A stretch of DNA of 64,000 bases, taken from Auanema rhodensis. Lineage: Eukaryota > Animalia > Nematoda. A program made the translations under genes and the position numbers. Shown here piece by piece: positions 10,715-55,870 of this stretch. Location: the NCBI GenBank assembly GCA_964057225.1, contig OZ059895.1:17856001-17920000 (forward strand), written 5' to 3'. Position 1 is the first letter of the stretch, and every line of letters begins with the position of its first letter. The notes below the pieces were generated by a model that saw only the letters and a list, made by a program, of their open reading frames with translations, searched no databases and was not told where the DNA came from.

Positions 10715-11080
10715 CGTTCCATTATGCTCCTACGTATATTGAACAGACCATTGTAGTCTGCTCAACTACGCGTATAGTATTCCATAAGTGTAGCGGTATG
10801 GAAACAGAGCATAAGGATTACATAAGATAAGGAAATATATAGGTTTATTATACACAATACAATATCATTACAATACAATAACACAAGTATAAAGTAAACT
10901 ACATTTACAAGACAAAGACTAATATATAAGATTAACTAAGTTAGATGCAAACCGTCCATGGGCTTGCAAAGGGGCGAACTCCCGAATAGGGGCATGAGGG
11001 AAGGCGGTGCCATTCCTCATTCCTCTAGTCGGTCTGGCTCTAACCCTGTAGTTACATATATAGAGTCTCCGAATGGAACG
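10715..11080 (-). repeat. 3' LTR of gypsy family A
   Basis: Direct repeat of 22418-22783; 9-bp terminal inverted repeat CGTTCCATT...AATGGAACG; AATAAA on the - strand near 10844-10849. Confidence 0.95.
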
Positions 11081-11780: not shown

Positions 11781-14700
11781 TTATTCTTCTTCATTCCTCG
11801 GAAGCCATATTTCGTCTTCATTTTCATCTTCTGGCTCTGTATCTATGCTATCCTTGTTGTTCCTGTTGATCACTTCTATTATTTCGATGTCGCTATCTTC
11901 TTCTGCTTGACTTTCTCGAAATCTTGCGCGAGTGTTGTAAGAGATGTTTTGTGAAGCAGGAGAGAAGATTTTCAAGTTATCTTTGTGGATATCTTGTAGT
12001 TTTCCTGATGAATTTCTGATTTGAACTTTTGATCCTTCTACGTTGATGACTTCGTATGGTCCATCATAGCTTTTCCGAAGCTTTTGGCCGATTTGGTGTG
12101 ATTTTATAGTCGTCATCACCATGTCGCCCGGTTGAATGTCTCTATGGTGTGCTCTTTGCGTTCTATCTTTCTTCTTTTTCGCATTTTCTTGATTTTTAGC
12201 TATGCGGTTCTTTATTATTTCGTCTCTCTTGTCCATATCTGGTCTTCTTTGGAGTAATTCTTCAGAAATTTCTTGAATTTTGGTGATCGTTTCTGGTAAT
12301 TCAGCGTCCATTGACATTCTGCATTCTTTACCGAATAATGCAATGTAAGGCGCAATCCCTGTAGTCGCGTGCTGAATATTGTTAATAGCAAAAGTGATTT
12401 TTGGTAATACAGTATCCCAGTCACTAAGGTCCTCTTTTAAGTAGTGGGTTAATCCTTCTTCGAGGGTTCTGTGAAGTCTTTCCACTTGTCCATTTGAGTT
12501 CTTTTGGTGTGGTAGTGTTGGTTCATGTTTGATTCCAAGTTTAGTACACATTTCTTCGAACTTTTTGGATACAAAGTTCGAACCTCTATCGGTGATCAAG
12601 CGATGGGGTGGTCCAAAAATGTAAACGAAATGTCGTAGAAATCGGTCAATTGTGATTTCCGTTGTTATTTGTGGTACAGCAATTGTTGTTGACCATTTTG
12701 TAAATGCGTCTTGCATGGTAATGACGTAGGTACAGTTTCTTTTTGAAGGGGGAAATGGTCCCATTACGTCCATGTGGACTCGTTCAAATGGCTTGCTTGG
12801 TATCTCAAAATGACCTATTGGTTGTACCGTCATGGAATGTGGATCTTTTTTTCTTTGAGCACATTTAATGCAGTTCTTGATGAATATAGTAATGTCGTTC
12901 TGCATATTTGTCCAATAGAATCTTCTTAGAATTGCTTCTTTTGTTTTAATAATTCCTTGATGTGCTGCAATTGTAGGATCCTCATGAAAAACTTTGATTA
13001 TTTCCTCAATTATGGGGTGTTCTTGTGGTATTACGATAGCGGGTTGTGGCTTTTTGTCTGTTGGTTTTGTATAGAGCAAGTCATTTATGACACAATATCT
13101 GTCATTAGCTGTCATGTTCTTTTGTGCTCTATATTCAATCTCCGCTATCGTCCGTTTAATCCAAGGGGTGCTTAGTTGAATTTCCTTTATTGTTGGTGTA
13201 TTTATGGCGTTAATGTGAATTTCTTCCATTTTCTTCTTCTTTGTTTCCGGCTTAGCATCGTTAGCTTCTTCACCTATATATCGAGATAGAGCATCGCATA
13301 CTTTATTTAATTGGCCTGCGCGATATTTTATTTCAATATCATATTCTTGGATGACCAGCTGGAACTTCGCAAGACGACCAAATAAGTCTCTGCGTGTCAT
13401 TAAGCTGGTGAGAGGTCGATGGTCCGTAATACATATAGTATGAGTTCCAAGAATGTATGTACGGAATTGATTTAATGCATATACAAGGCCTAATGCTTCT
13501 ATCTCGATTGGTGCGTAGTTACGTTCGGCTTTAACTAGTTTTCTGCTTGCAAATGCGATAGGGTGTAGATTTTTCAGAGGTTGTTTTGGATCTTCCGGTT
13601 GTAATAATACAGCACCTATGGCGATGTTACTACCGTCGCTTTCAACTATAAACAAGCGGTCCGATTTAGGTGGGCTTAAAACGGGTGCCTGTATTAAACT
13701 TCTTTTAAGGAGGTCTAAAGCTTCTTGATGTTTGTTTTCCCATTTGAATTCAGTATCTGCCTTTGTCAGATCGTATAAAGGGCTTGCGATACGTGCAAAA
13801 TCTTTCATGAATTTGCGAAAGAATCCAACCATTCCCAAGAATGCTCGTACACCTGTTGCATTCTTTGGTGCCGGATAATCTTGTATGGCGGCGACTTTTT
13901 GAGGGTCAGGTTTTATACCTTGACGTCCAACAATAAGTCCTAGAAATTTCACTTCTGGTTGAGCAAAAGCGCATTTCTTAAGCTTTATCTTCATTCCCAA
14001 TTCTTCTACTGCTTGCAGTAAATCATCGATATCTTTGAGATGTTGTTCTCTTGTATCAGATATAACTAATAGATCATCCAAATAAACAAATAGTTTACAA
14101 GAACATTTACTTTGCAAATACCTTACTGCTGTTTGAAAGGTATGAGGGGCTCCACAAAGGCCCATCGGCATCCGTTTGTACTGGTATGTGCCGGATGTGG
14201 TCGTAAATGCTGTTAGTGGTCGATCTGATTTTCTCAAGGATATTTGAAAAAATCCTGACACTAAATCGAAGTTTGAGAAAAATTGGGCGCCTGCTGCCAA
14301 ATCAACTATGTCAGAAATGCTTGGAATGACATAAGTTTGCTTGCGTGTGACATTATTTAAAGCTCGAAAATCTGTCACAAACCTATACGTGTCATCTTTC
14401 TTCTTAACTAGTACTACAGGGCTATTAAATAGAGATGTAGAAGGCTCTATTATGCCTTGCTCAAGCATTTCTTTGACTTGTTTTTCAATTTCTTCCTGTT
14501 TTCCTAAGGGAATACGTGTTATTCTCGGCTTTGGCATATCCATATCTGTTCTCAATGGTATGGTATGCTCTATAGAACCTTTAAATAAGCCTATTTTCCT
14601 GTCCTCGTTAAGAAATGCCTCACGATGGCTTTCAATTATTTTTGTAAGCTCATGTTTTTCTTCTTTCGTGAGATCAGCATTCTCTAGATCAAGATCTTTT

Positions 14701-17700
14701 ATGAAGTCTCTTGGAAAATATGGTAGTTTACTCTCCCAATCGGCTTCTGGCGGAACATATGGTAGAATTGGCTTATGCTTAAAGGGTTCACAAGCCGGAA
14801 TTTCTCCAATTATTGCCTGTCCGATGACTGAATTAGCTTCCATAGCTATTGTTTCATCGGTATTGTTACGGAACATAACATATACTCCACTGGTATCACG
14901 AAACGCAGTTGGATATAATGATTTTAATGCGCTTCCACTATCCCCTAAGACAACCACTTCGTTAGATTCTAGTGGTTTATCTGTCTTTATTGGGATAGGT
15001 GCCTCTTCATCAGGCTTTAATGTTTTTGTTCTTAAATTAATGATATTCACAGTTATCTCCGTATGCTTAATAGATTCGTTTCCTATTAATGGGATGGCAT
15101 TGTTTCCAATCTCCAACCTCTTCTTGGATGGTTTAAGGCTGACGTCGATGTTTTCGCTGTCAAGCGCTTTCATGAAATCTAGTCCAATCAAAGCAGGAGC
15201 AGGACAGTCACGATCGTTTGAGACCAAAAAGGTGTGTTCGATCTCGTAGCCGGCAATTTCAATTACAAGATTTATCTTTCCATAAAATGTGAAAGTGGAC
15301 TTGTTGGCTGCCATCGCTACTAAATGTCTCTTCTTGACATTTTCAGCCATGTTCAGATATTTGAGGGTGGAGAGCCTAACATATGACACTGATGAGCCTG
15401 AATCCCATAAAGCTAAAATCAGTTTATCTTCAACTGATATATATATTAATGGTAACTTTGTTTCCGCTGATGCAATAGAAGCAACAAATGGTATTGCGAT
15501 TGGAATAAATGTTACTAAAGCAGGATAGTATTGCTTCATGATGTTATCTGGCATCTGTTGGTCTGGGCGGCTTACAAGTTCCAATGTTTCTTCATAGCCT
15601 GGGGGCTCATTATCTATTTCATGGACATGCATTACGGTTAGTGGAGTGGCTCTGAAGAACCAAAATTTAGCAACAACGAAAAGAATTATTAATACTGCGG
15701 CAATCGTGACTATTGATCCTATAAAGATGAGTGTTCTCTCAATTGAACCTATTAGAAATTGTTTTACGCTAGTCCAGGCGGAAGTTGTGAACTCAGCTGC
15801 TTTAGAGATATAGTCACTGCCCTTTTTCAAAAGATTAAAGGCTGACGTAATCTTTGGATCGTTGTGAATAGTATGTAAAACATGGTTCTGTCGTATGGAT
15901 GCTAAACTTGCTCCATATGCAATAGCTGTTGACATTGAGTAAACTCTCAATGATAAATTGGTGTATAAGTTAGCGCCTGTGAACTTTAAAGGTGTTAATT
16001 GGTGGTATTGCGCTTTATCAAAGAGTGATATTGGTTTTACTTCAACCGATCCATTTATATTTATCCATTCTCCATTTTGATAGTACACATCTGTTGGTAC
16101 ATGTTCGCAATCTATCTCTTTTCCATGTGTTAATAAGTCTCTTGATCCTGGAGCAGCAAAATATAATCTCTCATCTTCTGTTATTACTGGTGTTTCCAAA
16201 TAGCATGTATCATTGATCTTATGATTATGATAAACAGCTTTAGGTTGAAGAGGTAAGCATATATGAACATGAACTATATCGCTGCCTACGAAACGGGCTG
16301 CAATATCCTCTCTTCCTAAAATAGTCCTCATTGCTATTGTGGGTTCTATGTGTAAAATAGAACGCCATAGCTCGAGGTATCTATTTTGAATCTCACATAT
16401 GGATTCATAAGATTCCATAAAATGTTTCTGTAGCTCTTCTTGTATGAGTGTTGTTGTATATTGTAGATGATCTTGAGCTATTCTGCGAGATACGTTGAGG
16501 TTGAATTGTATTTCGTTGTTCACTTTTGACGCTGTATACGTTGCCTGAGCCTGAATTTCTCTGGTTTCTACGGGTGGAGATGATGTTCTTTGTTTCCTTA
16601 AGGTTCGTGACGCCGTGTCAGTGACTGTTGCTAATGTTGTTGGCGAGAGAGTCGTAGTTATCACGGCTGTTGTCGTGTCAACTATGGTTGTCGTCGGAAT
16701 CCGAGTCGTATAGCTTATAGTTGTCTCCTGAACTAGTGAAGCGGGTTTGTCCGTTGTTGTCGTTAATGACAGTCTTCTAGTCAGATAAGGCGGTGTTTCA
16801 ATATCCTCTAACAGTGGTAAAAATGTTTTTATAAGTAGCTGGCGTGTATCCGCGCTTGGGGTTTGAATGCGAGGGTGGGGGCCCATCGATATACCGTAGT
16901 TAGAATCTTTATCTCGATATAGTTTGTTGGTATCTGGCACATTGATTGTTAATTGTCGGAACTTTTCATCATCTACGGCTGCTGCTGTTTTATTTGGCCT
17001 TATTACTCGCAATGTCATCAAGTTATGGTATAAGTAAAGTGTATTTCTAAGTACTATACGCTCATCAGCATTGTCAGTTGTTAAAGTTGGTCGGATAGGC
17101 GGCATGTTCACAAAGGATTTTAAAACCTCTTGCCTTGATGGTACCGACAGATTGTTTTCAAATATTACCGGTGTATAAGCTAGCTCCATCGCTATGCTTT
17201 CGGCTCTTTCGCGGTAGGATCCGTCCTTTTCTAGTAGTTTTTCGTCAAATTCGTGTGCTGTTAATCTGTCACCTATCTGTTCTAATAATTGTTGTGAGGT
17301 TAAATACCGTATAGCGCCGCGAGTGGTTGCTGCCAGTTCCTTTTGCGCAAGAAAATAAAGTATTGCTTCCTCAGGGTCGTGTATTTCGTATGTTTGAAGG
17401 AAACGTTGTATGGATTTATCAGATACGGGACTTCTTAAGAAGAAATAAAACTTCTCGGGATGTGCTGAAACCCAATCAATAATTGAATATGAAGGGTTGA
17501 CAGCTCGTCTGGCCTTTATAAGCGGTATTATCTGATAAATACCAGGATTACTCATCACCGGTCGTAAGAAAGGATAAGGACAAATATTTAATATTAAAGT
17601 TTCAAAATCTTCCTGTTTTTGTATCCACTCCTTGTTTAATTCAACCGTGCATTCCGCAATTGCTCTTTTATCTCTTTTCGCCGGAAGTTTCTTATATTCT

Positions 17701-20489
17701 CTCTCTATTAAAACATGGATATTGGTGTCATTTGGGTACTGTGGTAAGAGAATGTAATTGCCAGTCGTGGTGTGGAAGATTGGCTGTTTAAAACAAGAAG
17801 ATATTTGCTTCGGTATCTCTTTTTGATCGATTACAAGGGCTGATTGAGTGGTTGGTAACAGAATAATGCCGTCTCCAATTATCGCATCATATTCACTCAT
17901 GTCGATATAGTTGCATCGATATTCATAAGGCTGTTTCTCCCATATGATGATTGAGGTATCTGATGCACATTCTCCATGATGCGCTAAGCATCCTTCAGTA
18001 TTTAGTATTAAATTGGAGATTATAGTTTCATCTGGCATCCGTGTCATAGCCCCTCTTTCGATAACCAATCTGGCTTTCTCTTTACATAGTTCATTATTAA
18101 AAGATCGGCCTGGCGAGAAGGAAGGCTCGTCAGTTGCATATGTTATGCTGTCGATCTTCTTTAATTCACTCCAATTCCATCTTCTATCTCTCACTGCCAG
18201 TCTGCATTCTGCAGCTGGTATCTTTTCAATTCTCGCTATCGTTGTATTGGTATCTCTAAGGAACAAAAGGTCTCTGATACACATTTTATGAATTTCTTTG
18301 GAGCATCTCCATGCATCCCATTCATGTGCCGTTTGATTCCTTGTATAAAGATGAACTTTTGTTCGTAAGATATGCTTTATTGGTGGTAATAAGCATTTTC
18401 GGAGAGATGGGGGACGGAGAAGGGCTCCTCCAGTAGCTTTAGTACATAGCTGGTATGCTTCAGCTGTTGTAACCAGTGATAAGATTACTGATAAAGCTAC
18501 GGCTAAAGTCAAAGGAGATATCAGAGTCAAATTATTGACTCTTGAGCCTCTACCTCTGCCTCTATTGTTGTTATTTCCCCTAAAGGTACTGTTATTTCTC
18601 TGTCTATTATTGCTCATTTCTTGATTTTGTGATGCATTGTGGCTTCTTTGATACCCATTTTGATTTTGATTCTGATAATTTCGACCGCGGTCACCAAAAT
18701 TGCGGTTCCTAGCAAATGGGTTTTGGAAATTCCAGCCTTTTTGATTTTTTGAAAATTTATGATAATTTTGATTGTTTTGAAAGTTTGGATGATAATTGTT
18801 ATAATTATTATTATAATTTTGATAATTTTTATTATTAAAAGATTGATAACCTCTTGCCATACCTCTCCCACCATTGTTTCTGCGCGGGGGGAAAGTTCTT
18901 TCAATTGCGTTAACCAATAGCGCCTGAGGGTCTGCTACTTGGTTTGCAATTGATTCCTCCCAGCGAGCACTATCAACAGCCTCAGCAAAAGTTTTGGGTT
19001 TTGCTCGAATTACCCCTGGGCGTATCGTATTTTTCAAGCCTCTCAAAAATGTGGACCTCAGAATGTGATCTTTATGAGTATCACTATTAGAGAAAGCATT
19101 TAAGCTGAGGTTTCTTAACGTTTGTGCAAAACCATCAATTGATAAATCGCCTTGAGTGCTGTTTTGAAGTGTGATAAGGGCAGGGTCTTGATTGTATTCG
19201 GGACACAGCTTGGATGTTAACTCTTCTATTAGGGTAACCCAAGGTCCAGCTGTTCTGACCTTGTCAGGTAGCTCTAAATAAGCTTCCTCTGCTCTATCAT
19301 TTTTCAATAGTAATGGTAAAATAGTTAGTCTTTCGGGCATCACTAAGCCTAAGGCGTTAGAAAAGGTATTAAACTTTGCCACGAAATCTCTAAAGTTACG
19401 ACTTCCGTCGTATATGGGGCAATAAGGTGAGCTTAATGCGTGCGCAATGGTAGATTTACCAGCTCCCGGAAGACGTGGTGTCTCCGTCATGGTTGGTATA
19501 TCCTCAGGGTATGTGCGAGATGACGTAATCCCTTTACTGCCTGAGCTTCTCGCCGTTAAGTTCTTACCTCCCTTTTTCGAGTTACCAGATGTTGGATAAC
19601 TAATGGTAGGGGCGGCTGAGGAGAACCGCTTCCCTGGGAGTTTGATAACTCGACTCGTTGCCTGAGGCGTCGAATGTATTGAAACGCTTGAACTGGGTAT
19701 AGCGCTATCTGACTTATTAAGGGTTGGGTTGGAGGATACGTGAAGAGAGTTATCAACTTGTTCTGTTGTTACCTCCCCTGGAGACAAATTCAAAACTTTT
19801 ATTAAGCGAGCTGTTAAAGATTTCTTACTTTTGAACTTATCAGTAGTTAGTGATAAGGGCAAAACTTCGGTAATTTCCTGATTTGGTTCTACGGGATTAT
19901 TAGAGGTTGAGCGCCTACGCGGTGTATTAGTTTTTCTTTTATTAATCTTTTTAGAATCAAGCTTTTTCGAATCAAGCTTATCAGTGATAACTGATAAGGG
20001 TGATTTGCGAATAGTGAGAGATGAGGTTTTATTAAGTTGTGAGTTTTCTGTCGGAGTGGAAAATGCCTGCGGTGTTAGAGTTAGTTCAAAAGAAGATGCA
20101 AGATCGTTATCAGTATTAACTGATAAAGTTGATAAGTTTAGGTGGGGGGTGGCTGGTGAAGTATTAGAGGTTATTTGTTTTGGTTTTTGAATTTTTTGAA
20201 TCTTTTTATTACTTTTAAAAGAGTGTACCTTTGGAGTTGAAGCTGAAGTTTGAATATTGTAGTCCTGAATATAGAAATCAGGGTCCTCCTCGGTGTTGTC
20301 CGGAGGTGAATACGTGCCTTCTCGAGGAATGAAGGTTTTCTCGACTTTGGGTTTTACCTCTTGTTCAGGCTCTTCAATCTGAACACTGAGGAGTCGAGTG
20401 CGGCTTCTGGTTCGACTGGCGACTGCGATGTCGTCACTGGACTCAGAAGGGTATAGAGCAGGGACGGCCGAAGAGTATCTTCGTGCCAC
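11781..20489 (-). CDS. Gag-Env-Pol polyprotein (capsid-like Gag, gB-like envelope, aspartic protease, RT, RNase H, integrase); true start uncertain (GTG 20489, first ATG 19490)
   Basis: Protease LWDSGS (DSG 15404-15396), RT YLDD (14084-14073), RNase H ESDGS/EALG/TDH, integrase HHCC + D,D,E (VHMD, ITDRGSN, NGQVER) + GPY; Gag-like FLRGL motif; no stop in 2902 codons. Confidence 0.95.
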   Translation of the reverse strand: MARRYSSAVPALYPSESSDDIAVASRTRSRTRLLSVQIEEPEQEVKPKVEKTFIPREGTYSPPDNTEEDPDFYIQDYNIQTSASTPKVHSFKSNKKIQKIQKPKQITSNTSPATPHLNLSTLSVNTDNDLASSFELTLTPQAFSTPTENSQLNKTSSLTIRKSPLSVITDKLDSKKLDSKKINKRKTNTPRRRSTSNNPVEPNQEITEVLPLSLTTDKFKSKKSLTARLIKVLNLSPGEVTTEQVDNSLHVSSNPTLNKSDSAIPSSSVSIHSTPQATSRVIKLPGKRFSSAAPTISYPTSGNSKKGGKNLTARSSGSKGITSSRTYPEDIPTMTETPRLPGAGKSTIAHALSSPYCPIYDGSRNFRDFVAKFNTFSNALGLVMPERLTILPLLLKNDRAEEAYLELPDKVRTAGPWVTLIEELTSKLCPEYNQDPALITLQNSTQGDLSIDGFAQTLRNLSLNAFSNSDTHKDHILRSTFLRGLKNTIRPGVIRAKPKTFAEAVDSARWEESIANQVADPQALLVNAIERTFPPRRNNGGRGMARGYQSFNNKNYQNYNNNYNNYHPNFQNNQNYHKFSKNQKGWNFQNPFARNRNFGDRGRNYQNQNQNGYQRSHNASQNQEMSNNRQRNNSTFRGNNNNRGRGRGSRVNNLTLISPLTLAVALSVILSLVTTAEAYQLCTKATGGALLRPPSLRKCLLPPIKHILRTKVHLYTRNQTAHEWDAWRCSKEIHKMCIRDLLFLRDTNTTIARIEKIPAAECRLAVRDRRWNWSELKKIDSITYATDEPSFSPGRSFNNELCKEKARLVIERGAMTRMPDETIISNLILNTEGCLAHHGECASDTSIIIWEKQPYEYRCNYIDMSEYDAIIGDGIILLPTTQSALVIDQKEIPKQISSCFKQPIFHTTTGNYILLPQYPNDTNIHVLIEREYKKLPAKRDKRAIAECTVELNKEWIQKQEDFETLILNICPYPFLRPVMSNPGIYQIIPLIKARRAVNPSYSIIDWVSAHPEKFYFFLRSPVSDKSIQRFLQTYEIHDPEEAILYFLAQKELAATTRGAIRYLTSQQLLEQIGDRLTAHEFDEKLLEKDGSYRERAESIAMELAYTPVIFENNLSVPSRQEVLKSFVNMPPIRPTLTTDNADERIVLRNTLYLYHNLMTLRVIRPNKTAAAVDDEKFRQLTINVPDTNKLYRDKDSNYGISMGPHPRIQTPSADTRQLLIKTFLPLLEDIETPPYLTRRLSLTTTTDKPASLVQETTISYTTRIPTTTIVDTTTAVITTTLSPTTLATVTDTASRTLRKQRTSSPPVETREIQAQATYTASKVNNEIQFNLNVSRRIAQDHLQYTTTLIQEELQKHFMESYESICEIQNRYLELWRSILHIEPTIAMRTILGREDIAARFVGSDIVHVHICLPLQPKAVYHNHKINDTCYLETPVITEDERLYFAAPGSRDLLTHGKEIDCEHVPTDVYYQNGEWININGSVEVKPISLFDKAQYHQLTPLKFTGANLYTNLSLRVYSMSTAIAYGASLASIRQNHVLHTIHNDPKITSAFNLLKKGSDYISKAAEFTTSAWTSVKQFLIGSIERTLIFIGSIVTIAAVLIILFVVAKFWFFRATPLTVMHVHEIDNEPPGYEETLELVSRPDQQMPDNIMKQYYPALVTFIPIAIPFVASIASAETKLPLIYISVEDKLILALWDSGSSVSYVRLSTLKYLNMAENVKKRHLVAMAANKSTFTFYGKINLVIEIAGYEIEHTFLVSNDRDCPAPALIGLDFMKALDSENIDVSLKPSKKRLEIGNNAIPLIGNESIKHTEITVNIINLRTKTLKPDEEAPIPIKTDKPLESNEVVVLGDSGSALKSLYPTAFRDTSGVYVMFRNNTDETIAMEANSVIGQAIIGEIPACEPFKHKPILPYVPPEADWESKLPYFPRDFIKDLDLENADLTKEEKHELTKIIESHREAFLNEDRKIGLFKGSIEHTIPLRTDMDMPKPRITRIPLGKQEEIEKQVKEMLEQGIIEPSTSLFNSPVVLVKKKDDTYRFVTDFRALNNVTRKQTYVIPSISDIVDLAAGAQFFSNFDLVSGFFQISLRKSDRPLTAFTTTSGTYQYKRMPMGLCGAPHTFQTAVRYLQSKCSCKLFVYLDDLLVISDTREQHLKDIDDLLQAVEELGMKIKLKKCAFAQPEVKFLGLIVGRQGIKPDPQKVAAIQDYPAPKNATGVRAFLGMVGFFRKFMKDFARIASPLYDLTKADTEFKWENKHQEALDLLKRSLIQAPVLSPPKSDRLFIVESDGSNIAIGAVLLQPEDPKQPLKNLHPIAFASRKLVKAERNYAPIEIEALGLVYALNQFRTYILGTHTICITDHRPLTSLMTRRDLFGRLAKFQLVIQEYDIEIKYRAGQLNKVCDALSRYIGEEANDAKPETKKKKMEEIHINAINTPTIKEIQLSTPWIKRTIAEIEYRAQKNMTANDRYCVINDLLYTKPTDKKPQPAIVIPQEHPIIEEIIKVFHEDPTIAAHQGIIKTKEAILRRFYWTNMQNDITIFIKNCIKCAQRKKDPHSMTVQPIGHFEIPSKPFERVHMDVMGPFPPSKRNCTYVITMQDAFTKWSTTIAVPQITTEITIDRFLRHFVYIFGPPHRLITDRGSNFVSKKFEEMCTKLGIKHEPTLPHQKNSNGQVERLHRTLEEGLTHYLKEDLSDWDTVLPKITFAINNIQHATTGIAPYIALFGKECRMSMDAELPETITKIQEISEELLQRRPDMDKRDEIIKNRIAKNQENAKKKKDRTQRAHHRDIQPGDMVMTTIKSHQIGQKLRKSYDGPYEVINVEGSKVQIRNSSGKLQDIHKDNLKIFSPASQNISYNTRARFRESQAEEDSDIEIIEVINRNNKDSIDTEPEDENEDEIWLPRNEEE
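15655..18530 (-). other. Envelope glycoprotein domain within the polyprotein (class III fusogen, herpesvirus gB / chuvirus G-like)
   Basis: Internal signal peptide ending AEA|YQLC (18530-18456), Cys-rich ectodomain with about 10 N-x-S/T sequons, furin-type KRDKR (17678-17664), a gB domain III/IV-like segment ICEIQNRYLELWRSILHIEP..LGREDIAARFVGSDIVHVHICLP..CY, and a C-terminal TM helix (15735-15655). Confidence 0.85.
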
Positions 20490-20905
20490 TTTGGAATCAC
20501 TCTTGGTTTGGAAAAACCGCGAGTGTTTCGTTATATGGGGGATGTTGACGTTGAATGAGTGACAAGAAATTCAGGTCGGTTATAGGGAAAAGTAAGAAAA
20601 GTTTGAAGATTGAGACGTGGCGTCTTTCGCCGAGAATCGTTATTAGATGAGAAAGAGTTTTAAAATCTTGGCCTGAGATCTGGCTCCGCCTATCTACCGT
20701 ATTCTCTTTTCTTTATTCTATTTCACAGATGTTCATCAATTATAAATTTTGTTGGTCTTCGCTCTTTCTAGCCTCAATCTTAATACTTTACTCTAATTGA
20801 ATTCTTGAAAGTATGAGAGAGATTTTCAGTCGTTTTATGTCCCCTTTTTATGCATAAGAATCTTTATATTTGTAGAGCTGAAAAAAAAAATAAATAAATC
20901 AAAGA

Positions 20906-21439
20906 ATGGCTTATGAAGGTCTATCGGGAATGACTTTTGTCTTGAGGAAGCTGTACGCTGACCTCGTCTTGTATGATCAAGACGAAGTGTTAGCTTATAG
21001 GCCGCACCCAGACATAATTAAGATGGTTGGTTAAAACAAAGAAACATGTTATCTTAATAAGAATTTTTAGTTTATTGAGGATTTAAAGATGCATTATCTG
21101 GGAAGGGGATTAGTAAACTTCTCCCTAATGCAGGAAATAGCGGATGAGGTTGCAGCTATCCGGCGATGGTGCCTCACCGACTTGTGCGCGCATTGGTATG
21201 AAAACCCAAATCTGGTCGCATCCCCTTGGAATTGGTATGAGCATAAGTCTCATGATTTTTATGATTATATGTCTAAAATTTTGTTTAAAATTTATTTATT
21301 TTATGAACAGTCTCCTATGGGCTTATTGCTAAGGACCTCTGCGGATTCAGTGTATTCGCAGTATTTAGAGCCTAGCGATGAGCCCATCTCACAGCCTATA
21401 GAATTTGTGAGACAGTTGCATTTTAAATGGGGCTTTTAA
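20906..21439 (+). CDS. Predicted spliced antisense accessory gene in the family A leader (exons 20906-21025, 21071-21439; 162 aa, unknown function)
   Basis: 40-codon ATG exon; a 45-nt GT..TTTTTAG intron (21026-21070) joins in frame to the 116-aa ORF; AATAAA at 21456-21461. Confidence 0.6.
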
Positions 21440-22404
21440 CAATTGTTTTATATATAATAAATACTTAATTTCACTCATTTGTTCTCTCTCTCTTTTTTTT
21501 TCATAACACAAACTTTGGTCGAGCTTATTAATAAAGAAGGAGTGCGTGCGCCTTGGGAAAATGGCTCATGTGCACGTTGATTATTAAAAGCCGTGGGCGA
21601 TTCTTTTTCGGAATGATTATGGCATGCTAATGAGATTCCGAGAATATTTAAAAAGATTGCTCATTTTACTAATGGACTGAGACCAAAGCTCGTTTATAAA
21701 ACGCAATTTTTTTCTTTAAACCATTCTACTAATTTATAGAATATTACAATATGAATACTACGGTAGGTGTGTGGGAATATCTTATGATGTTAGCAACAAA
21801 AATGAGCTGAGGAAGGTGACACATTCTACGGAGAAGAAAACATCCGTAGCCCATGTGCTTTCGCCAAAATGACCTGACAGGCAATAAAATTTGTGCCAGG
21901 ATTTTTCGGACTAGTGTGGTCTATTCTCACAATCAAAAAAAAATAAAAACCGAATAACGGCTCCCGCAAAAATATTTAGTTAGCATGCTCTTTTACGCCT
22001 GAATTTAACTTTCAAATCTCTAGTCCTGACCACAATAAAATATTAAACTTTGTGCGCTTTCAAAATTTCATTCTAACTCCTCGTTGCCAAATAATAATGT
22101 AATCAAAATTTCGTTTGGTGAAATTGTCCCCTATTTCGATCCAAACGTCCTCAAAAAAAAATGCAAGAGAAGCGGTGCAGGATACGGTATTATAAGGGTG
22201 GACACTCAGACGGTTTTATGAGTGGGGACAGCGGGTGAAATTTCAAAATTATATAGTCCTAGCTCTCTAAAAGAGAGATCCCTTGTACCTGCACCTTATA
22301 CAAGTTGGCGCCCTCATTATGTTGCTAACCGTGGAGGAAGTTTTAATTTAGATATCAAAATATGGACTTTTTATGCGAGTTTTTTGCGACAAAAATGAGT
22401 TCGA

Positions 22405-22417
22405 GGTGGAACCTCCA
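22405..22417 (-). promoter_or_regulatory. Primer-binding site complementary to the tRNA-Gln 3' end
   Basis: TGGAGGTTCCACC directly follows the 5' LTR; it is the complement of the animal tRNA-Gln 3' end GGTGGAACCT-CCA. Confidence 0.85.
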
Positions 22418-22783
22418 CGTTCCATTATGCTCCTACGTATATTGAACAGACCATTGTAGTCTGCTCAACTACGCGTATAGTATTCCATAAGTGTAGCGGT
22501 ATGGAAACAGAGCATAAGGATTACATAAGATAAGGAAATATATAGGTTTATTATACACAATACAATATCATTACAATACAATAACACAAGTATAAAGTAA
22601 ACTACATTTACAAGACAAAGACTAATATATAAGATTAACTAAGTTAGATGCAAACCGTCCATGGGCTTGCAAAGGGGCGAACTCCCGAATAGGGGCATGA
22701 GGGAAGGCGGTGCCATTCCTCATTCCTCTAGTCGGTCTGGCTCTAACCCTGTAGTTACATATATAGAGTCTCCGAATGGAACG
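22418..22783 (-). repeat. 5' LTR of gypsy family A
   Basis: Direct repeat of 10715-11080 with no differences seen by eye; adjacent to the PBS. Confidence 0.95.
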
Positions 22784-24883: not shown

Positions 24884-26353
24884 TGGAAAAGCATCAAGAA
24901 TTAGCAAAAAAGAAACATGATGCTCGATTACGCACTCACGAAAGAGATATACAAAAAGGAGACTGCGTTATGTTAGCTGTGAAAATGCACAAGCCAGGAC
25001 AAAAGCTTCGGAAAGCTTATGATGGACCATTTGAAGTTATAAATGTGAAGGGAAACATGGTTCAAATCAAAAACCTTTTCGGAAAGATCCAAGACGTTCA
25101 CAAGGACAATCTCAAATTATTTAATCGAGAAACAGATGACGGAATCGCACATATGCCCAGTGCACGTACAGACAGCTCAGACGATGACAGCGTTATCGAA
25201 ATCATAGAGGTTATCAACGGAAACAACAACGATGAAGACTCTTATGACGAACCAGAAGACCTTTCGGATACAAATTGGCTACCATCAAGAAGAAACCATT
25301 AACTCATGAGATTTTATCGTAAATTGTTTTGTAATAACTTTCTTTAAAGTAATACTAGAACACAAATTTTGTAACGAGTCCTCTAAAACAAGTCACTCTT
25401 AAGTCAAAAAGTAAACTAGAGCATAATGAATACGGGAAATGTGAGAAGATAATTCTTTATCATACAGTTCGAACCTTCCTAATTTCAACTAACATCCCCA
25501 TACTAGATGAGATGAAAAATGAAAGACATAGTTTGCAACAATATCTGAGCAACAGTCTTCACTTGAGTAATCAATGACTAAATTTGGAAGTTATTTGGTA
25601 TTACGCAAAACTTTTCTTTTTTTCTAAACTCACACAAATTGAAACAAACAACCGAGCTCTAAAAAAAAAAAAAAAATAGTTAACTTTTTGTCTACACTTG
25701 TTAGAGCGTTATGCTTAAAAACTTTTTTTATTATTATTTTATAAGCACGTTCGCCAATAAAACATAGTCTAGTATTCGTTAAAGAGGGTTAAAACTTTCA
25801 TAATTTGGTTAAAAATTTTTAATTCTTTTCAGATACTGATGTTTTATATTGTATTATGTTCATATTATAAGAATTTTACGTAAAATATTGTATTGTAACA
25901 TGTACTTTAATACACACATTAACCCTTCTGCTACAGTTAATCAAGTCAAAACTTTTGATTGTCGCGAGGACGCGACATAAACTCGAAAAAGGGCACGTTC
26001 CATTCGGATGATCAATGCATTACATTCATATGACGAAGCTGTAGCAGGCGGGTTACAGTCAGAGAATGCGAGACTGAGAGAAGACGACCCGCCCTTTTCC
26101 ATATTACAACACTTCAGCTTTGCCTCAGGGACGATCATGGATGGTTGGTCGTTCTCTCTCTGTTCTCTATTAGTTTAACCTTTACTTAGTTATATGTATC
26201 TTATTGTAATCACGTAGATATAATAAACCAATCTTTCTCGCGTCTTATGTTTATCCTTATGCTCCATGTTTAACCGCTACATCTGGAATACTACCACGCT
26301 CATCTTGTAGACTCCATTGGTCTGTAAGATCGACGCGGGAGCATAACGGAACG
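24883..26353 (+). mobile_element. 3' fragment of gypsy family B (integrase C-terminus 24883-25302, 3' UTR, PPT, LTR)
   Basis: ORF with YDGPF motif homologous to the family A integrase tail; PPT AAAAAGGGCA at 25986-25995; 5' end fused to the array spacer. Confidence 0.92.
25996..26353 (+). repeat. 3' LTR of gypsy family B (358 bp)
   Basis: Starts CGTTCCATTCGGA after the PPT and ends GAGCATAACGGAACG, paralleling the family A LTR ends; AATAAA near 26222. Confidence 0.88.
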
Positions 26354-29300
26354 ACAGTCACTGTTTGTGGATGAACAATATGAAACAAATAGAAATAAGA
26401 ACGAGGCGAAGCTCAGCAGTTGAGGGTAATTCTGAATTGATTTACAGATGTTATTTCTTCAAACTGAGGTGTTCAGAAAAAAAAAATGCCTCCAGGCGGG
26501 ATTGAACCACCGACCTTTGGTTTACAAGACCAACGCTCTGCCACTGAGCTATAGAGGCTACAATAAGGAATAAAAATATTTCTATACAGTCACTGTTTGT
26601 GGATGAACAATATGCAACAAATAGAAACAAGAACGAGGCGAAGCTCAGCAGTTGAGGGTAATTCTGAATTGATTTACAAATGTTATTTCTTCAAACTGAG
26701 GTGTTCAGAAAGAAAAAAATGCCTCCAGGCGGGATTGAACCACCGACCTTTGGTTTACAAGACCAACGCTCTGCCACTGAGCTATAGAGGCTACAATAAG
26801 ATATAAAAATATTTCTATACAGTCACTGTTTGTGGATGAACAATATGAAACAAATAGAAACAAGAACGAGGCGAAGCTCAGCAGTTGAGGGTATTTCTGA
26901 ATTGATTTACAGATGTTATTTCTTCAAACTGAGGTGTTCAGAAAGAAAAAAAATTGCCTCCAGGCGGGATTGAACCACCGACCTTTGGTTTACAAGACCA
27001 ACGCTCTGCCACTGAGCTATAGAGGCTACAATAAGGAATAAAAATATTTCTATACAGTCACTGTTTGTGGATGAACAATATGCAACAAATAGAAACAAGA
27101 ACGAGGCGAAGCTCAGCAGTTGAGGGTAATTCTGAATTAATTTACAGATGTTATTTCTTCAAACTGAGGTGTTCAGAAAGAAAAAAAATTGCCTCCAGGC
27201 GGGATTGAACCACCGACCTTTGGTTTACAAGACCAACGCTCTGCCACTGAGCTATAGAGGCTACAATAAGGAATACGCGGGAGCATAACGGAACGACAGT
27301 CACTGTTTGTGGATGAACAATATGAAACAAATAGAAATAAGAACGAGGCGAAGCTCAGCAGTTGAGGGTAATTCTGAATTGATTTACAGATGTTATTTCT
27401 TCAAACTGAGGTGTTCAGAAAAAAAAAATGCCTCCAGGCGGGATTGAACCACCGACCTTTGGTTTACAAGACCAACGCTCTGCCACTGAGCTATAGAGGC
27501 TACAATAAGGAATAAAAATATTTCTATACAGTCACTGTTTGTGGATGAACAATATGCAACAAATAGAAACAAGAACGAGGCGAAGCTCAGCAGTTGAGGG
27601 TAATTCTGAATTGATTTACAGATGTTATTTCTTCAAACTGAGGTGTTCAGAAAGAAAAAAATGCCTCCAGGCGGGATTGAACCACCGACCTTTGGTTTAC
27701 AAGACCAACGCTCTGCCACTGAGCTATAGAGGCTACAATAAGATATAAAAATATTTCTATACAGTCACTGTTTGTGGATGAACAATATGAAACAAATAGA
27801 AACAAGAACGAGGCGAAGCTCAGCAGTTGAGGGTATTTCTGAATTGATTTACAGATGTTATTTCTTCAAACTGAGGTGTTCAGAAAGAAAAAAAATTGCC
27901 TCCAGGCGGGATTGAACCACCGACCTTTGGTTTACAAGACCAACGCTCTGCCACTGAGCTATAGAGGCTACAATAAGGAATACGCGGGAGCATAACGGAA
28001 CGACAGTCACTGTTTGTGGATGAACAATATGAAACAAATAGAAATAAGAACGAGGCGAAGCTCAGCAGTTGAGGGTAATTCTGAATTGATTTACAGATGT
28101 TATTTCTTCAAACTGAGGTGTTCAGAAAAAAAAAATGCCTCCAGGCGGGATTGAACCACCGACCTTTGGTTTACAAGACCAACGCTCTGCCACTGAGCTA
28201 TAGAGGCTACAATAAGATATAAAAATATTTCTATACAGTCACTGTTTGTGGATGAACAATATGAAACAAATAGAAACAAGAACGAGGCGAAACTCAGCAG
28301 TTGAGGGTAATTTTGAATTGATTTACAGATGTTATTTCTTCAAACTGAGGTGTTCAGAAAGAAAAAAATTGCCTTCAGGCGGGATTGAACCACCGACCTT
28401 TGGTTTACAAGACCAACGCTCTGCCACTGAGCTATAGAGGCTACAATAAGATAGAAAAATATTTCTATACAGTCACTGTTTGTGGATGAACAATATGAAA
28501 CAAATAGAAACAAGAACGAGGCGAAGCTCAGCAGTTGAGGGTAGTTTTGAATTGATTTACAGATGTTATTTCTTCAAACTAAGGTGTTCAGAAATTAAAA
28601 AAATGCCTCCAGGCGGGATTGAACCACCGACCTTTGGTTTACAAGACCAACGCTCTGCCACTGAGCTATAGAGGCTACAATAAGATATAAAAATATTTCT
28701 ATACAGTCACTGTTTGTGGATGAACAATATGAAACAAATAGAAACAAGAACGAGGCGAAGCTCAGCAGTTGAGGGTAATTCTGAATTGATTTACAGATGT
28801 TATTTCTTCAAACTGAGGTGTTCAGAAAGAAAAAAATTGCCTTCAGGCGGGATTGAACCACCGACCTTTGGTTTACAAGACCAACGCTCTGCCACTGAGC
28901 TATAGAGGCTACAATAAGATAGAAAAATATTTCTATACAGTCACTGTTTGTGGATGAACAATATGAAACAAATAGAAACAAGAACGAGGCGAAGCTCAGC
29001 AGTTGAGGGTAATTTTGAATTGATTTACAGATGTTATTTCTTCAAACTGAGGTGTTCAGAAAGAAAAAAATTGCCTCCAGGCGGGATTGAACCACCGACC
29101 TTTGGTTTACAAGACCAACGCTCTGCCACTGAGCTATAGAGGCTACAATAAGATAGAAAAATATTTCTATACAGTCACTGTTTGTGGATGAACAATATGA
29201 AACAAATAGAAACAAGAACGAGGCGAAGCTCAGCAGTTGAGGGTAATTTTGAATTGATTTACAGATGTTATTTCTTCAAACTAAGGTGTTCAGAAAGAAA

Positions 29301-32300
29301 AAAATTGCCTTCAGGCGGGATTGAACCACCGACCTTTGGTTTACAAGACCAACGCTCTGCCACTGAGCTATAGAGGCTACAATAAGATAGAAAAATATTT
29401 CTATACAGTCACTGTTGGTGGATGAACAATATGAAACAAATAGAAACAAGAACGAGGCGAAGCTCAGCAGTTGAGGGTAATTTTGAATTGATTTACAGAT
29501 GTTATTTCTTCAAACTAAGGTGTTCAGAAAGAAAAAAATTGCCTTCAGGCGGGATTGAACCACCGACCTTTGGTTTACAAGACCAACGCTCTGCCACTGA
29601 GCTATAGAGGCTACAATAAGGAATAAAAATATTTCTATACAGTCACTGTTTGTGGATGAACAATATGCAACAAATAGAAACAAGAACGAGGCGAAGCTCA
29701 GCAGTTGAGGGTAGTTTTGAATTGATTTACAGATGTTATTTCTTCAAACTGAGGTGTTCAGAAAGAAAAAAAATTGCCTTCAGGCGGGATTGAACCACCG
29801 ACCTTTGGTTTACAAGACCAACGCTCTGCCACTGAGCTATAGAGGCTACAATAAGATAGAAAAATATTTCTATACAGTCACTGTTGGTGGATGAACAATA
29901 TGAAACAAATAGAAACAAGAACGAGGCGAAGCTCAGCAGTTGAGGGTAATTTTGAATTGATTTACAGATGTTATTTCTTCAAACTAAGGTGTTCAGAAAG
30001 AAAAAAATTGCCTTCAGGCGGGATTGAACCACCGACCTTTGGTTTACAAGACCAACGCTCTGCCACTGAGCTATAGAGGCTACAATAAGGAATAAAAATA
30101 TTTCTATACAGTCACTGTTTGTGGATGAACAATATGCAACAAATAGAAACAAGAACGAGGCGAAGCTCAGCAGTTGAGGGTAGTTTTGAATTGATTTACA
30201 GATGTTATTTCTTCAAACTGAGGTGTTCAGAAAGAAAAAAAATTGCCTCCAGGCGGGATTGAACCACCGACCTTTGGTTTACAAGACCAACGCTCTGCCA
30301 CTGAGCTATAGAGGCTACAATAAGATAGAAAAATATTTCTATACAGTCACTGTTTGTGGATGAACAATATGAAACAAATAGAAACAAGAACGAGGCGAAG
30401 CTCAGCAGTTGAGGGTAATTTTGAATTGATTTACAGATGTTATTTCTTCAAACTGAGGTGTTCAGAAAGAAAAAAAATTGCCTCCAGGCGACTGAGCTAT
30501 AGAGGCTACAATAAGATAGAAAAATATTTCTATACAGTCACTGTTGGTGGATGAACAATATGAAACAAATAGAAACAAGAACGAGGCGAAGCTCAGCAGT
30601 TGAGGGTAATTTTGAATTGATTTACAGATGTTATTTCTTCAAACTGAGGTGTTCAGAAAGAAAAAAAATGCCTCCAGGCGGGATTGAACCACCGACCTTT
30701 GGTTTACAAGACCAACGCTCTGCCACTGAGCTATAGAGGCTACAATAAGATAGAAAAATATTTCTATACAGTCACTGTTTGTGGATGAACAATATGAAAC
30801 AAATAGAAACAAGAACGAGGCGAAGCTCAGCAGTTGAGGGTAATTTTGAATTGATTTACAGATGTTATTTCTTCAAACTGAGGTGTTCAGAAAGAAAAAA
30901 ATTGCCTCCAGGCGGGATTGAACCACCGACCTTTGGTTTACAAGACCAACGCTCTGCCACTGAGCTATAGAGGCTACAATAAGATAGAAAAATATTTCTA
31001 TACAGTCACTGTTTGTGGATGAACAATATGAAACAAATAGAAACAAGAACGAGGCGAAGCTCAGCAGTTGAGGGTAATTTTGAATTGATTTACAGATGTT
31101 ATTTCTTCAAACTAAGGTGTTCAGAAAGAAAAAAATTGCCTTCAGGCGGGATTGAACCACCGACCTTTGGTTTACAAGACCAACGCTCTGCCACTGAGCT
31201 ATAGAGGCTACAATAAGATAGAAAAATATTTCTATACAGTCACTGTTTGTGGATGAACAATATGAAACAAATAGAAACAAGAACGAGGCGAAGCTCAGCA
31301 GTTGAGGGTAGTTTTGAATTGATTTACAGATGTTATTTCTTCAAACTAAGGTGTTCAGAAATTAAAAAAATGCCTCCAGGCGGGATTGAACCACCGACCT
31401 TTGGTTTACAAGACCAACGCTCTGCCACTGAGCTATAGAGGCTACAATAAGATAGAAAAATATTTCTATACAGTCACTGTTGGTGGATGAACAATATGAA
31501 ACAAATAGAAACAAGAACGAGGCGAAGCTCAGCAGTTGAGGGTAATTTTGAATTGATTCACAGATGTTATTTCTTCAAACTGAGGTGTTCAGAAAGAAAA
31601 AAAATGCCTCCAGGCGGGATTGAACCACCGACCTTTGGTTTACAAGACCAACGCTCTGCCACTGAGCTATAGAGGCTACAATAAGATATAAAAATATTTC
31701 TATACAGTCACTGTTTGTGGATGAACAATATGAAACAAATAGAAACAAGAACGAGGCGAAGCTCAGCAGTTGAGGGTAATTCTGAATTGATTTACAGATG
31801 TTATTTCTTCAAACTGAGGTGTTCAGAAAGAAAAAAATTGCCTTCAGGCGGGATTGAACCACCGACCTTTGGTTTACAAGACCAACGCTCTGCCACTGAG
31901 CTATAGAGGCTACAATAAGATAGAAAAATATTTCTATACAGTCACTGTTTGTGGATGAACAATATGCAACAAATAGAAACAAGAACGAGGCGAAGCTCAG
32001 CAGTTGAGGGTAGTTTTGAATTGATTTACAGATGTTATTTCTTCGAACTGAGGTGTTCAGAAAGAAAAAAAATTGCCTCCAGGCGACTGAGCTATAGAGG
32101 CTACAATAAGAAAGAAAAATATTTCTATACAGTCACTGTTTGTGGATGAACAATATGAAAAAAATAGAAACAGGAACGAGGCGAAGCTCAGCAGTTGAAG
32201 GTAATTCTGAATTGATTTACAGATGTTATTTCTTCAAACTAAGGTGTTCAGAAAGAAAAAAAATGCCTCCAGGCGGGATTGAACCACCGACCTTTGGTTT

Positions 32301-32795
32301 ACAAGACCAACGCTCTGCCACTGAGCTATAGAGGCTACAATAAGATAGAAATATATTTCTATACAGTCACTGTTTGTGGATGAACAATATGAAACAAATA
32401 GAAACAGGAACGAGGCGAAGCTCAGCAGTTGAGGGTAGTTTTGAATTGATTTACAGATGTTATTTCTTCGAACTGAGGTGTTCAGAAAGAAAAAAAATTG
32501 CCTCCAGGCGACTGAGCTATAGAGGCTACAATAAGAAAGAAAAATATTTCTATACAGTCACTGTTTGTGGATGAACAATATGAAAAAAATAGAAACAGGA
32601 ACGAGGCGAAGCTCAGCAGTTGAAGGTAATTTTGAATTGATTTACAGATGTTATTTCTTCAAACTGAGGTGTTCAGAAAGAAAAAAAATGCTTCCAGGCG
32701 GTATTGAACCACCGACCTTTGGTTTACAAGACCAACGCTCTGCCACTGAGCTATAGAGGCTACAATAAGATAGAAAAATATTTCTATACAGTCAC
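26354..32795 (-). repeat. tRNA-Thr(TGT) array block 3, inverted orientation (~28 units, 3 deleted)
   Basis: Reverse complement of the same unit. Confidence 0.95.
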
Positions 32796-34217
32796 ATCTC
32801 ATCTAGTATGGGGAAGTTAGTTGAAATTAGGAAGGTTCGAACTATATGATAAAGAATTATCTTCTCTCATTTCCCGTGTTCATTATGCTCTAGTTTACTT
32901 TTTGACTTAAGAGTGACTTGTTTTAGAGGACTCGTTACAAAATTTGTGTTCTAGTATTACTTTAAAGAAAGTTATTACAAAACAATTTACAATAAAATCT
33001 CATGAGTTAATGGTTTTTTCTTGATGGTAGCCAATTTGTATCCGAAAGGTCTTCTGGTTCGTCATAAGAGTCTTCATCGTTGTTGTTTCCGTTGATAACC
33101 TCTATGATTTCGATATCGCTGTCATCGTCTGAGATGTCTGTACGTGTACTGGGCTTATGTGCGATTCCGTCATCTGTTTCTCGATTAAATAATTTGAGAT
33201 TGTCCTTGTGAACGTCTTGGATCTTTCGGAAAAGGTTTTTGATTTGAACCATGTTTCCCTTCACATTAATAACTTCAAATGGTCCATCATAAGCTTTCCG
33301 AAGCTTTTGTCCTGGCTTGTGCATTTTCACAGCTAACATAACGCAGTCTCCTTTTTGTATATCTCTTTCGTGAGTGCGTAATCGAGCATCATGTTTCTTT
33401 TTTGCTAATTCTTGATGCTTTTCCAAATTTTCTTGAATGATTGTTTTCTGTTTGCTTCGGATTTTCTCAATATTTTCAATCTCCTTTGAAATTTCTTTTG
33501 GTTCAGTTGTTTCGGGGTATAAATCTTTATCCAATCTCAAACGGCTTTCTTTCCCAAATAGTACAACGTATGGTGATATTCCTGTGGTTGCATGCGTTGT
33601 GGTGTTCAATGCAAAGGTAATTTTTGGCAAAAACATGTCCCAATCAGTGACATCTTTGTTGAGATAATGTGTGAGTCCTTCTTCTAACGTTTTATGAAGT
33701 CTTTCTACTTGTCCATTGGAATTCTTCTGATGTGGGAGTGTTGATTCATGTTTGATACCGAGTTTTTCGCACATGTCTTCAAATTTCCTTGATAGGAAGT
33801 TGGAACCGCGGTCTGTTATTAAGCGATTCGGTGGTCCATAGACATATACAAAGTTTCTGAGGAATCTATCAATGACAACTTCACTAACAATTGTTGGTAT
33901 GGCGATAGTTGTAGCCCATTTGGAGAAAGAGTCTTGTATTGTGAGAACATAGCTGTTGTTCCTTTTTGATGTTGGGAATGGTCCCATGATATCCATATGT
34001 ATTCTCTCAAATGGTTTTGATGGTATGTTAAATTGACCCATTGGTTGTACGGTCATAGCATGAGGATCTTTCTTTCGTTGTGCACATTTGATGCACTGTT
34101 TTACGTATTTTGCTATGTCGTTCTGCATGTTAGTCCAGGAAAATCTTCGTAATATGGCTTCTTTTGTTTTGTTAATTCCTTGATGCGCCCCGATTGTTGG
34201 GTCTTCATGAAATTCTT
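32795..34217 (-). mobile_element. Inverted duplicate of the family B integrase region and partial 3' UTR (ORF 33007-34128)
   Basis: Reverse complement of 38923-40345 (coordinates sum to 73140); identical 373-aa translation. Confidence 0.93.
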
Positions 34218-34222
34218 CAATA

Positions 34223-40200: not shown

Positions 40201-40345
40201 TGTAACGAGTCCTCTAAAACAAGTCACTCTTAAGTCAAAAAGTAAACTAGAGCATAATGAACACGGGAAATGTGAGAAGATAATTCTTTATCATACAGTT
40301 CGAACCTTCCTAATTTCAACTAACTTCCCCATACTAGATGAGATG
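34223..40345 (+). pseudogene. Degraded gypsy family B internal region: gag, partial env, RT, RNase H, integrase; no LTRs
   Basis: ORFs 34379-37078, 37241-37834, 37749-38918 and 39012-40133 are colinear with the family A polyprotein. Frameshifts near 37060 and 37748; deletions near 36066, 37180 (env C-half, TM and protease lost) and 38915. Confidence 0.92.
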
Positions 40346-49300: not shown

Positions 49301-49629
49301 TCGGTGGTTCAATCCCGCCTGGAGGCAATTTTTTTTCTTTCTGAACACTTCAGTTTGAAGAAATAACATCTGTAAATCAATTCAAAATTACCCTCAACTG
49401 CTGAGCTTCGCCTCGTTCCTGTTTCTATTTGTTTCATATTGTTCATCCACAAACAGTGACTGTATAGAAATATTTTTCTATCTTATTGTAGCCTCTATAG
49501 CTCAGTGGCAGAGCGTTGGTCTTGTAAACCAAAGGTCGGTGGTTCAATCCCGCCTGGAGGCATTTTTTTTCTTTCTGAACACCTCAGTTTGAAGAAATAA
49601 CATCTGTAAATCAATTCAGAATTACCCTC
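40345..49629 (+). repeat. tRNA-Thr(TGT) array block 4 (~40 units)
   Basis: Same unit, 232-235 bp; two copies carry a 12-nt tRNA deletion. Confidence 0.95.
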
Positions 49630-55600: not shown

Positions 55601-55870
55601 TGCTTTACGAAGCGTTTTGTCTGATGCTTCGTAAAATTTTTGGAATTTTTTCTCGTTATCTTGATGATTTTTCAACGATTCTTTGAATTGGTGTTGGACT
55701 TTTGTCCAGCGAATGATAAGGCAAGAGAGGGTTTCCTCTTCTTCCTCAGTGTGGAAGTCGCAATCTACCAGAATACCAGGAAGGTCCTTCACTTCCATCT
55801 CGTATCGTGTAAGCAGTTCTCCAAGAAACTGGTTAGATTGTTTGATATGATTGACAAAAAGGAGTGACAT
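49622..55870 (-). pseudogene. BEL/Pao gag-pol polyprotein interrupted by one in-frame TAA (52582-52580)
   Basis: ORFs 55870-52580 and 52525-49622 are in the same frame, separated by a single stop plus 18 sense codons; the final stop codon lies in tRNA-array spacer sequence. Confidence 0.88.

Follow-up and report, generated by a model that had tools for sequence, protein, structure and literature searches.

The window, the whole 64,000-nucleotide stretch of the Auanema rhodensis genome analyzed here, carries a tandem array of tRNA-Thr(TGT) genes at positions 2631-63903, in which 128 genes were called at a unit length of ~234 bp; the block at ~26487-32760 is inverted. A multi-exon hydrophobic host gene, which by eye resembles a nematode serpentine chemoreceptor, occupies positions 1-1400 on the minus strand and is separated from the array by a GC-rich short tandem repeat with open frames on both strands (1790-2490). 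Inside the array are a BEL/Pao element with no env and one in-frame stop in pol (49622-56530, minus strand), fragments of a damaged Ty3/gypsy family, designated family B, and an unbroken Ty3/gypsy provirus of 12,069 bp on the minus strand (22783-10715), designated element A. Element A is inserted in a spacer of the array. Its 5′ LTR (22418-22783, minus strand) is 366 bp long and has CG...CG ends with an inverted terminal repeat, and its 3′ LTR (10715-11080, minus strand) is directly preceded by a polypurine tract. The usual ends of an LTR are TG...CA. The CG end of element A is backed by the LTR junction of family B at ~26354, and CG...CG ends are seen in both families (B LTR, 25997-26354). 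The primer binding site (22406-22417, minus strand) pairs with the last 12 nt at the 3′ end of tRNA-Gln.

The two LTRs of element A are identical at 366 of 366 bases, so the insertion is very recent; the published nematode class described below has LTRs >99% identical, 5-14 kb apart, with a tRNA primer site, as here. The target duplication is 4 bp, although 5 bp is also possible judging from a single copy, and the empty site is present in a DNA sequencing run, X1, as a joint that skips 12,073 bases. Read depth in X1 is ~215 on element A versus 33-82 on adjacent host DNA, an excess that hints at several copies but is not a copy number. At least half of the sampled words of element A are present in 11 public runs. 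Related sequence at ~5× depth in X1 matches the leader only in patches (20499-20701 and 21800-22156), and the RNA-type runs described below contain contigs in which the LTR and primer site of element A lead into different sequence; together, these suggest that further families or nonautonomous partners use the element A LTR. Precise targeting of tRNA genes, as by Ty3, was considered but is not supported: the distance upstream of a tRNA gene is ~97 bp for element A and ~25-30 bp for the family B pieces, and the BEL element lies elsewhere.

A single stop-free frame of 2,929 codons runs from 20570 to 11781 on the minus strand. The original prediction of one uninterrupted frame is thus borne out, but the start it gave, 20489, falls on codon 28, a GTG, of a frame that opens at 20570. 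The first ATG, at 19490, would yield a protein of 2,569 aa. At this base composition, the chance of an open run of 960 codons is ~10^-28, and that of the whole frame is 10^-85. The order along the frame is capsid, signal-like segment, ectodomain, transmembrane helix, and then protease, reverse transcriptase, and RNase H, followed by integrase (PR-RT-RH-IN). The ~960 open codons predicted between Gag and protease correspond to the 961 codons from the start of the signal to the end of the transmembrane region (aa 679-1639), and the distance from the end of Gag to the protease is ~1,030 codons.

Within this frame, the capsid-like Gag domain (18906-19490, aa 361-555) matches Ty3_capsid weakly (E 0.03, aa 465-539); further support comes from family B, whose capsid, 68% identical to that of element A, matches Retrotrans_gag in Pfam at E 5e-6. 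The nucleocapsid-like tail that follows (18537-18905, aa 556-678) is rich in N, R, and G and has no CCHC knuckle, and cysteine is absent from aa 456 to aa 709. On the other side of the envelope segment, the aspartyl protease (15156-15452) has a DSG motif, a Pfam match at E 8e-4, and a profile match over aa 1707-1805, and the reverse transcriptase (YLDD) and RNase H (13329-14483) match Pfam at E 6e-32 and 3e-28. The best PDB match of the reverse transcriptase is that of Ty3 (E 1e-81; 278 bits versus 126 for the top retroviral enzyme). Integrase (11781-13013) comprises the H2C2, core, and C-terminal parts up to the stop codon (rve, E 2e-15; Integrase_H2C2, E 8e-15), and between it and the 3′ LTR there is no ORF of at least 150 aa. 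A plus-strand ORF at 14335-15249 has no Pfam match and was taken to be a shadow of pol. A single X1 stretch (17054-19515) spans the gag-env junction, and overlapping contigs of X1 cover the region from the transmembrane helix to the protease, with one in-frame 3-base gap among the indels listed against the ORF. X1 is possibly the source of the window itself, so the independent support for this arrangement is carried by the homologs described below. The ORF contains at least 26 natural single-base differences; among those listed, 13 of 16 in pol are synonymous and one of four in env. The excess of nonsynonymous differences in env (three of four versus 3 of 16 in pol) would count against the reading favored below, but the sample is too small to weigh.

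Upstream of the gag ATG, the frame continues for 360 codons (19491-20570, minus strand) as a S/T/K/P-rich extension with no ATG. The GTG at 20489 has A at -3 and G at +4, a strong start context. A matching open stretch in family B is 36% identical over 191 codons (pS 0.75, pN 0.51). An open extension ahead of the ATG, together with its relative in family B, suggests a non-ATG start.

The leader between primer site and open frame contains a second candidate gene, in the opposite orientation. On the plus strand, a two-exon ORF of 162 codons (20906-21439) consists of a 40-codon exon beginning with the ATG at 20906 (20906-21025), a 45-nt intron (21026-21070), and a 122-codon exon ending at 21439 (21071-21439). 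The intron has GT..AG ends on the plus strand only and contains two in-frame stops. It is skipped in contigs of three of three RNA-type runs from one study, runs whose RNA status is itself a guess and for which the strand of the transcript was read from the splice signals, whereas X1 has no such skip and contains part of the intron. The ORF is flanked by an acceptor-like TTTTCAG at 20823 and by AATAAA at 21456, 17 bases downstream. Homologs of exon 2 were found neither by word search, Pfam, and Atlas (best score, 0.76) nor among 80 metagenome loci. From these sequence features, 20906-21439 is likely an antisense accessory gene of element A. The nematode elements treated by Sacco and colleagues reportedly have one continuous ORF and, in addition, an accessory one encoding either a helicase or a small hypothetical protein. 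Literature searches for antisense ORFs in such elements found nothing relevant, although Sacco et al. 2022 may already cover the antisense gene. In supplementary file 1 of PMC13524379, as far as it was available, several Caenorhabditis elements have their primer sites ~1.5-1.9 kb before gag, and in element A, the distance to the open frame is 1.85 kb. Judged from these coordinates, the similar spacing raises the possibility that a leader gene is family-wide.

The segment between Gag and protease had been predicted to be an envelope, and both sequence and fold comparison agree. Pfam places Monjiviricetes_fusion at aa 1368-1509 (E 6e-15) and Glycoprotein_B at aa 1366-1452 (E 7e-9, under its curated cut-off). 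At E ≤1, all 43 of 43 PDB sequence matches of the ectodomain are to herpesvirus gB (best E 2.5e-4). An AlphaFold2 model of the ectodomain, built from 108 of the 128 sequences first aligned, has a mean pLDDT of 70 and a pTM of 0.52, with two confident halves. Foldseek relates it to gB and to rhabdo-, nyami-, and chu-like glycoproteins with E down to 2e-15 and TM-scores of 0.1-0.25; the TM-scores to gB, 0.16-0.25, are low and, like the pTM of the model, count against the assignment. A second structure aligner superposed the model on prefusion HSV-1 gB with Z 13.6 and an rmsd of 5.2 over 350 aligned residues. On the strength of these matches and the model, the ectodomain is predicted to be a gB-like class III fusogen.

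The N-terminal half of the envelope (17664-18455, minus strand, aa 706-969) is modeled as β-rich domains that align to gB (pLDDT ~90) and ends in a furin motif, RDKR; of 92 relatives, only 42 have such a motif between the two halves of env. This half contains 10 cysteines and fits the expectation of a cysteine-rich ectodomain, but the description does not extend to the rest, since the ectodomain as a whole has 16 cysteines in 907 aa, with 10 N-glycan sequons. Directly after RDKR is an all-helical insert (16821-17663, aa 970-1250), which reaches a pTM of 0.70 when modeled alone with AlphaFold2. It has no Pfam match, its Foldseek matches to viral proteins have E ≥0.18, and its best structural Z is 4.3. 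Death-domain matches at Z 3-4.3 are at background level, and Atlas matches of 0.93-0.94 were set aside as weak owing to a low recognition score. The insert is possibly undescribed, but failure to match does not by itself establish a new fold. A Thr-rich, mucin-like linker (16611-16766; 22 Thr in 52 aa, pLDDT <50) leads to the C-terminal half (15735-16568, ~aa 1335-1612), in which a long central helix of 75 residues and the crown of a class III fusogen are predicted. Between element A and family B, synonymous sites are saturated; identity and dN are 68% and 0.25 for the N-terminal half, 56% and 0.33 for the insert, and 68% and 0.23 for capsid. The envelope is therefore under purifying selection between the two families, about like capsid.

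Topology was judged from hydropathy and the AXA cleavage pattern. A signal-peptide-like segment (18456-18536, minus strand, aa 679-705) has a hydrophobic stretch at aa 682-700 (hydropathy 2.24) followed by AEA|YQ, with a predicted cut after AEA. Beyond the ectodomain, a strongly hydrophobic transmembrane anchor is predicted at 15672-15728 (aa 1615-1633, hydropathy 3.09). Among the proteins drawn from the best 150 of 308 relatives, 35 of the 46 with gag and env have a signal-like segment ahead of env, and 58 proteins have one transmembrane segment (49 proteins), two (7), or none (2) between env and protease. The proposed signal-ectodomain-anchor layout is thus conserved among relatives and would fit threading through the ER. 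A third, weaker hydrophobic stretch (aa 1684-1702, hydropathy 2.07) precedes the protease. If it crossed the membrane, it could put the protease in the lumen, which counts against a single-pass model; its two prolines, and its absence in most relatives, make a membrane crossing unlikely.

To place the envelope among relatives, 308 cluster representatives were retrieved at E ≤0.001 with env as query, and the best 150 of 308 were used. The 154 proteins compared include two of the window itself and are gene predictions, many of them partial; of these, 62 have env before pol, 10 have pol before env, 80 have env without pol, and two have neither. At least 61 other proteins therefore share the env-before-pol order, and the architecture belongs to a family rather than to a single insertion, as predicted. 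The nearest env among database proteins is from Auanema sp., at 48% identity, and among these best 150 of 308 relatives, the helical insert is found at high identity only in Auanema proteins and family B. The two env halves are separated by ~420 aa in element A, 170-510 aa in many env-pol relatives, and 15-65 aa in pol-env relatives. One Caenorhabditis brenneri protein (P0158) is 32% identical to element A over 1,672 columns across env, PR, RT, and IN. No env relative was found in IMG/VR. None of 80 metagenome gypsy RT loci has an env; their RT regions are 26-45% identical to that of element A, and none is a close env-less relative.

RT trees were built with 26 rows and with 56 rows, the latter after omission of one long branch (P0005) and of rows with short RT. 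The element A RT groups with env-pol proteins of C. japonica and C. nigoni at 100/100 support, in a tree that has no reference NERV RT. The 22 env-pol rows do not form one clade (four changes, with deep nodes unsupported); PMC13524379 also reports non-monophyly in the part available. The two homologs of the pol-env type whose RT is complete fall with the BEL element of the window (100/99), apart from element A.

Family B had been put forward as a sister with the same junction. Its main copy (34211-40345, plus strand) is broken and rearranged, with gag, signal, and part of env, and with RT, RH, and IN in separate frames; it has a 54-codon in-frame deletion in the N-terminal half of env, its RT is frameshifted, and a stop codon precedes IN. 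The region at 34211-37078 does preserve the Gag-signal-ectodomain junction. The env-pol junction is not shown there: nothing in family B matches aa 1156-1937, which include the C-terminal half of env, the transmembrane region, and the protease, so this family backs the gag-env junction only. Besides the main copy, family B pieces comprise a 3′ end with one LTR (24885-26354) and an inverted duplicate of the integrase and 3′ region (32795-34217). Inversions of the tRNA array coincide with family B pieces.

The original prediction started from the premise that enveloped elements place env 3′ of pol. This premise is out of date, as env before pol is reported in the available parts of both PMC13524379 and PMC6431247. 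PMC13524379 (Chary and Hayashi, eLife 2026) describes nematode, bryozoan, and flatworm elements with a gB-type ENV as GAG-ENV-POL and credits this order to Sacco et al. 2022 (J Gen Virol 103:1739), who treated nematode elements termed NERVs. With the order already published for nematode Ty3/gypsy elements, the headline of the original prediction is not new. Our literature searches on gag-env-pro-pol elements and NERVs returned only PMC13524379, which cites Sacco et al. 2022. According to the accessible part of PMC13524379, there are 36 nematode gB-type elements, the primer is tRNA-Gln in 8 of 11 Caenorhabditis rows, and supplementary file 1 gives the same 12-mer as the Gln_UUG_CUG primer site of C. 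latens errantivirus_4 and C. tropicalis errantivirus_1. Its master table, as available, has no Auanema row, and its genome list records ENV-POL matches in Auanema.

Element A shares with these nematode elements the gene order, a gB-type env between signal and transmembrane segment, a Ty3/gypsy pol, LTR size, and tRNA-Gln priming, and its closest relatives are in Auanema and Caenorhabditis, which makes a chromadorean host likely. One continuous frame is reportedly a further likeness. Element A is nevertheless a distinct family, whose env is 48% identical to that of its nearest match in the database. It also has a likely antisense spliced gene and a non-ATG extension, neither of which is mentioned in the available parts of PMC13524379, where the word "antisense" is absent from the main text. 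The planarian element Burro/GYPSM1 likewise encodes a single gypsy polyprotein in which env is fused in frame to gag on one side and pol on the other and, in the part of PMC6431247 available, is called the first such case; it differs from element A in its size (~30 kb versus 12 kb), its CCHC knuckles, and its cargo of BCL2, BIR, ankyrin, and MATH domains, none of which is found in element A by Pfam. The nematode Belpaoviridae with env (Atlas clade, Cer7/13/14), described in the accessible part of bioRxiv 10.64898/2026.03.22.711591, are also endogenous elements with an envelope gene; they combine a BEL/Pao pol with a phlebovirus-like envelope 3′ of integrase, whereas element A has a Ty3-like RT and a class III env. 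Insect errantiviruses of the Drosophila gypsy type have a separate F-type env ORF 3′ of pol, in contrast to the gB-type env 5′ of pol in element A. Element A is thus a new family within a published class, and its layout is not new. The antisense gene, the helical env insert, and the ATG-less 360-codon extension are possibly undescribed; among the features of element A, only the antisense gene may prove new.

Taken together, element A is a young Ty3/gypsy provirus that belongs with the nematode gag-env-pol elements of gB type, and its polyprotein probably crosses the ER membrane a single time. In the proposed route, aa 679-705 would act as an internal signal, with signal peptidase cutting after AEA. 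The ectodomain would enter the ER lumen, become glycosylated, trimerize, and be cut by furin at RDKR. The stretch at aa 1615-1633 would stop transfer and return the Env tail and PR-RT-RH-IN to the cytosol, leaving Gag and Pol cytosolic and the gB-like Env lumenal. Alphavirus and flavivirus polyproteins provide a precedent, in which a capsid is followed by an internal signal and then by a type I glycoprotein, along with class II fusogens and RNA replication. The analogy is one of topology only, with no homology: in element A, the enzymes come after the anchor of Env, and replication is by reverse transcription. If signal peptidase severs Gag from Env-Pol during synthesis, Pol could not enter particles fused to Gag. 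Instead, equal amounts of the two would be held at the membrane, Gag by its signal stub and Pol by the tail of Env, and the element's own protease would free both during budding at V/I-N-type sites (aa 553, 678, 1649, and 2453). Env would then be required both for packaging and for entry into other cells, likely of the germline. V/I-N-A/N-I/L motifs are present at these four expected junctions, with one more at aa 2729 inside integrase. In relatives, the motif occurs at 0.8-1.2 per 100 aa at inferred junctions versus 0.06-0.14 in domain bodies, a 5- to 20-fold difference, for a motif that was derived from the element A protein, is present at each junction in about one-third of relatives, and lies in linkers of differing composition.

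A more elaborate reading, which we regard as doubtful, is that element A is a complex endogenous retrovirus combining the spliced antisense accessory protein, a GTG start that adds a 330-residue N-terminal arm to the polyprotein, an env domain of new fold, and packaging of Pol by the Env tail; the element could then not replicate without its envelope. It is also unlikely that the envelope is real but an optional passenger, with Pol made from an env-skipping spliced mRNA or from polyprotein that escapes the ER and is cut by the protease, and with copying confined to the cell. A signal 320-680 residues from the start of a protein may be poorly recognized, and candidate self-protease sites lie on both sides of env. 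Cer1, moreover, uses spliced mRNAs (PMC10309623, in the part available). Against this possibility, env is conserved like capsid, and no close env-less relative is found among the 80 metagenome loci. Among the joints listed for three RNA-type runs and one DNA run, none skips env, a weak argument given the shallow contigs; two of the RNA-type runs cover the 3′ third and barely env, and missing cover there is not evidence.

Very improbable, in our estimate, is that the segment is a captured host or viral fragment that no longer works as a fusogen, for example on account of its 400-residue insert, and serves only as an anchor or a receptor blocker. The ~420-aa separation of the env halves, far above that in pol-env relatives, would favor such a reading, and according to the available Discussion of PMC13524379, Env proteins of this kind have been assayed for fusion only in Drosophila. 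However, both gB halves are confidently modeled and predicted to associate in the manner of prefusion gB, the insert comes after the furin motif and so at a distance from the fusion domain, and gaps of 170-510 aa are seen in many env-pol relatives. Finally, an assembly chimera, or a nested insertion in frame by chance, might be suspected in a repeat-rich tRNA array with rearranged family B fragments, but is refuted by the same order in at least 61 independent homologs, in addition to the identical LTRs with a target duplication, the X1 contigs over the junctions, and the words shared with 11 runs, and can be given almost no weight.

Single passage of the polyprotein through the ER membrane, therefore, remains the reading that we favor, and the points of interest now lie in how that polyprotein is processed, in the route by which Pol enters particles when Env stands between Gag and Pol, and in the antisense gene. 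If confirmed, the spliced antisense gene would add to such elements an accessory gene of no known family. Because element A is a young copy with no breaks and its sequence occurs in RNA-type runs, its native expression, processing, and particles can be searched for in the host itself.
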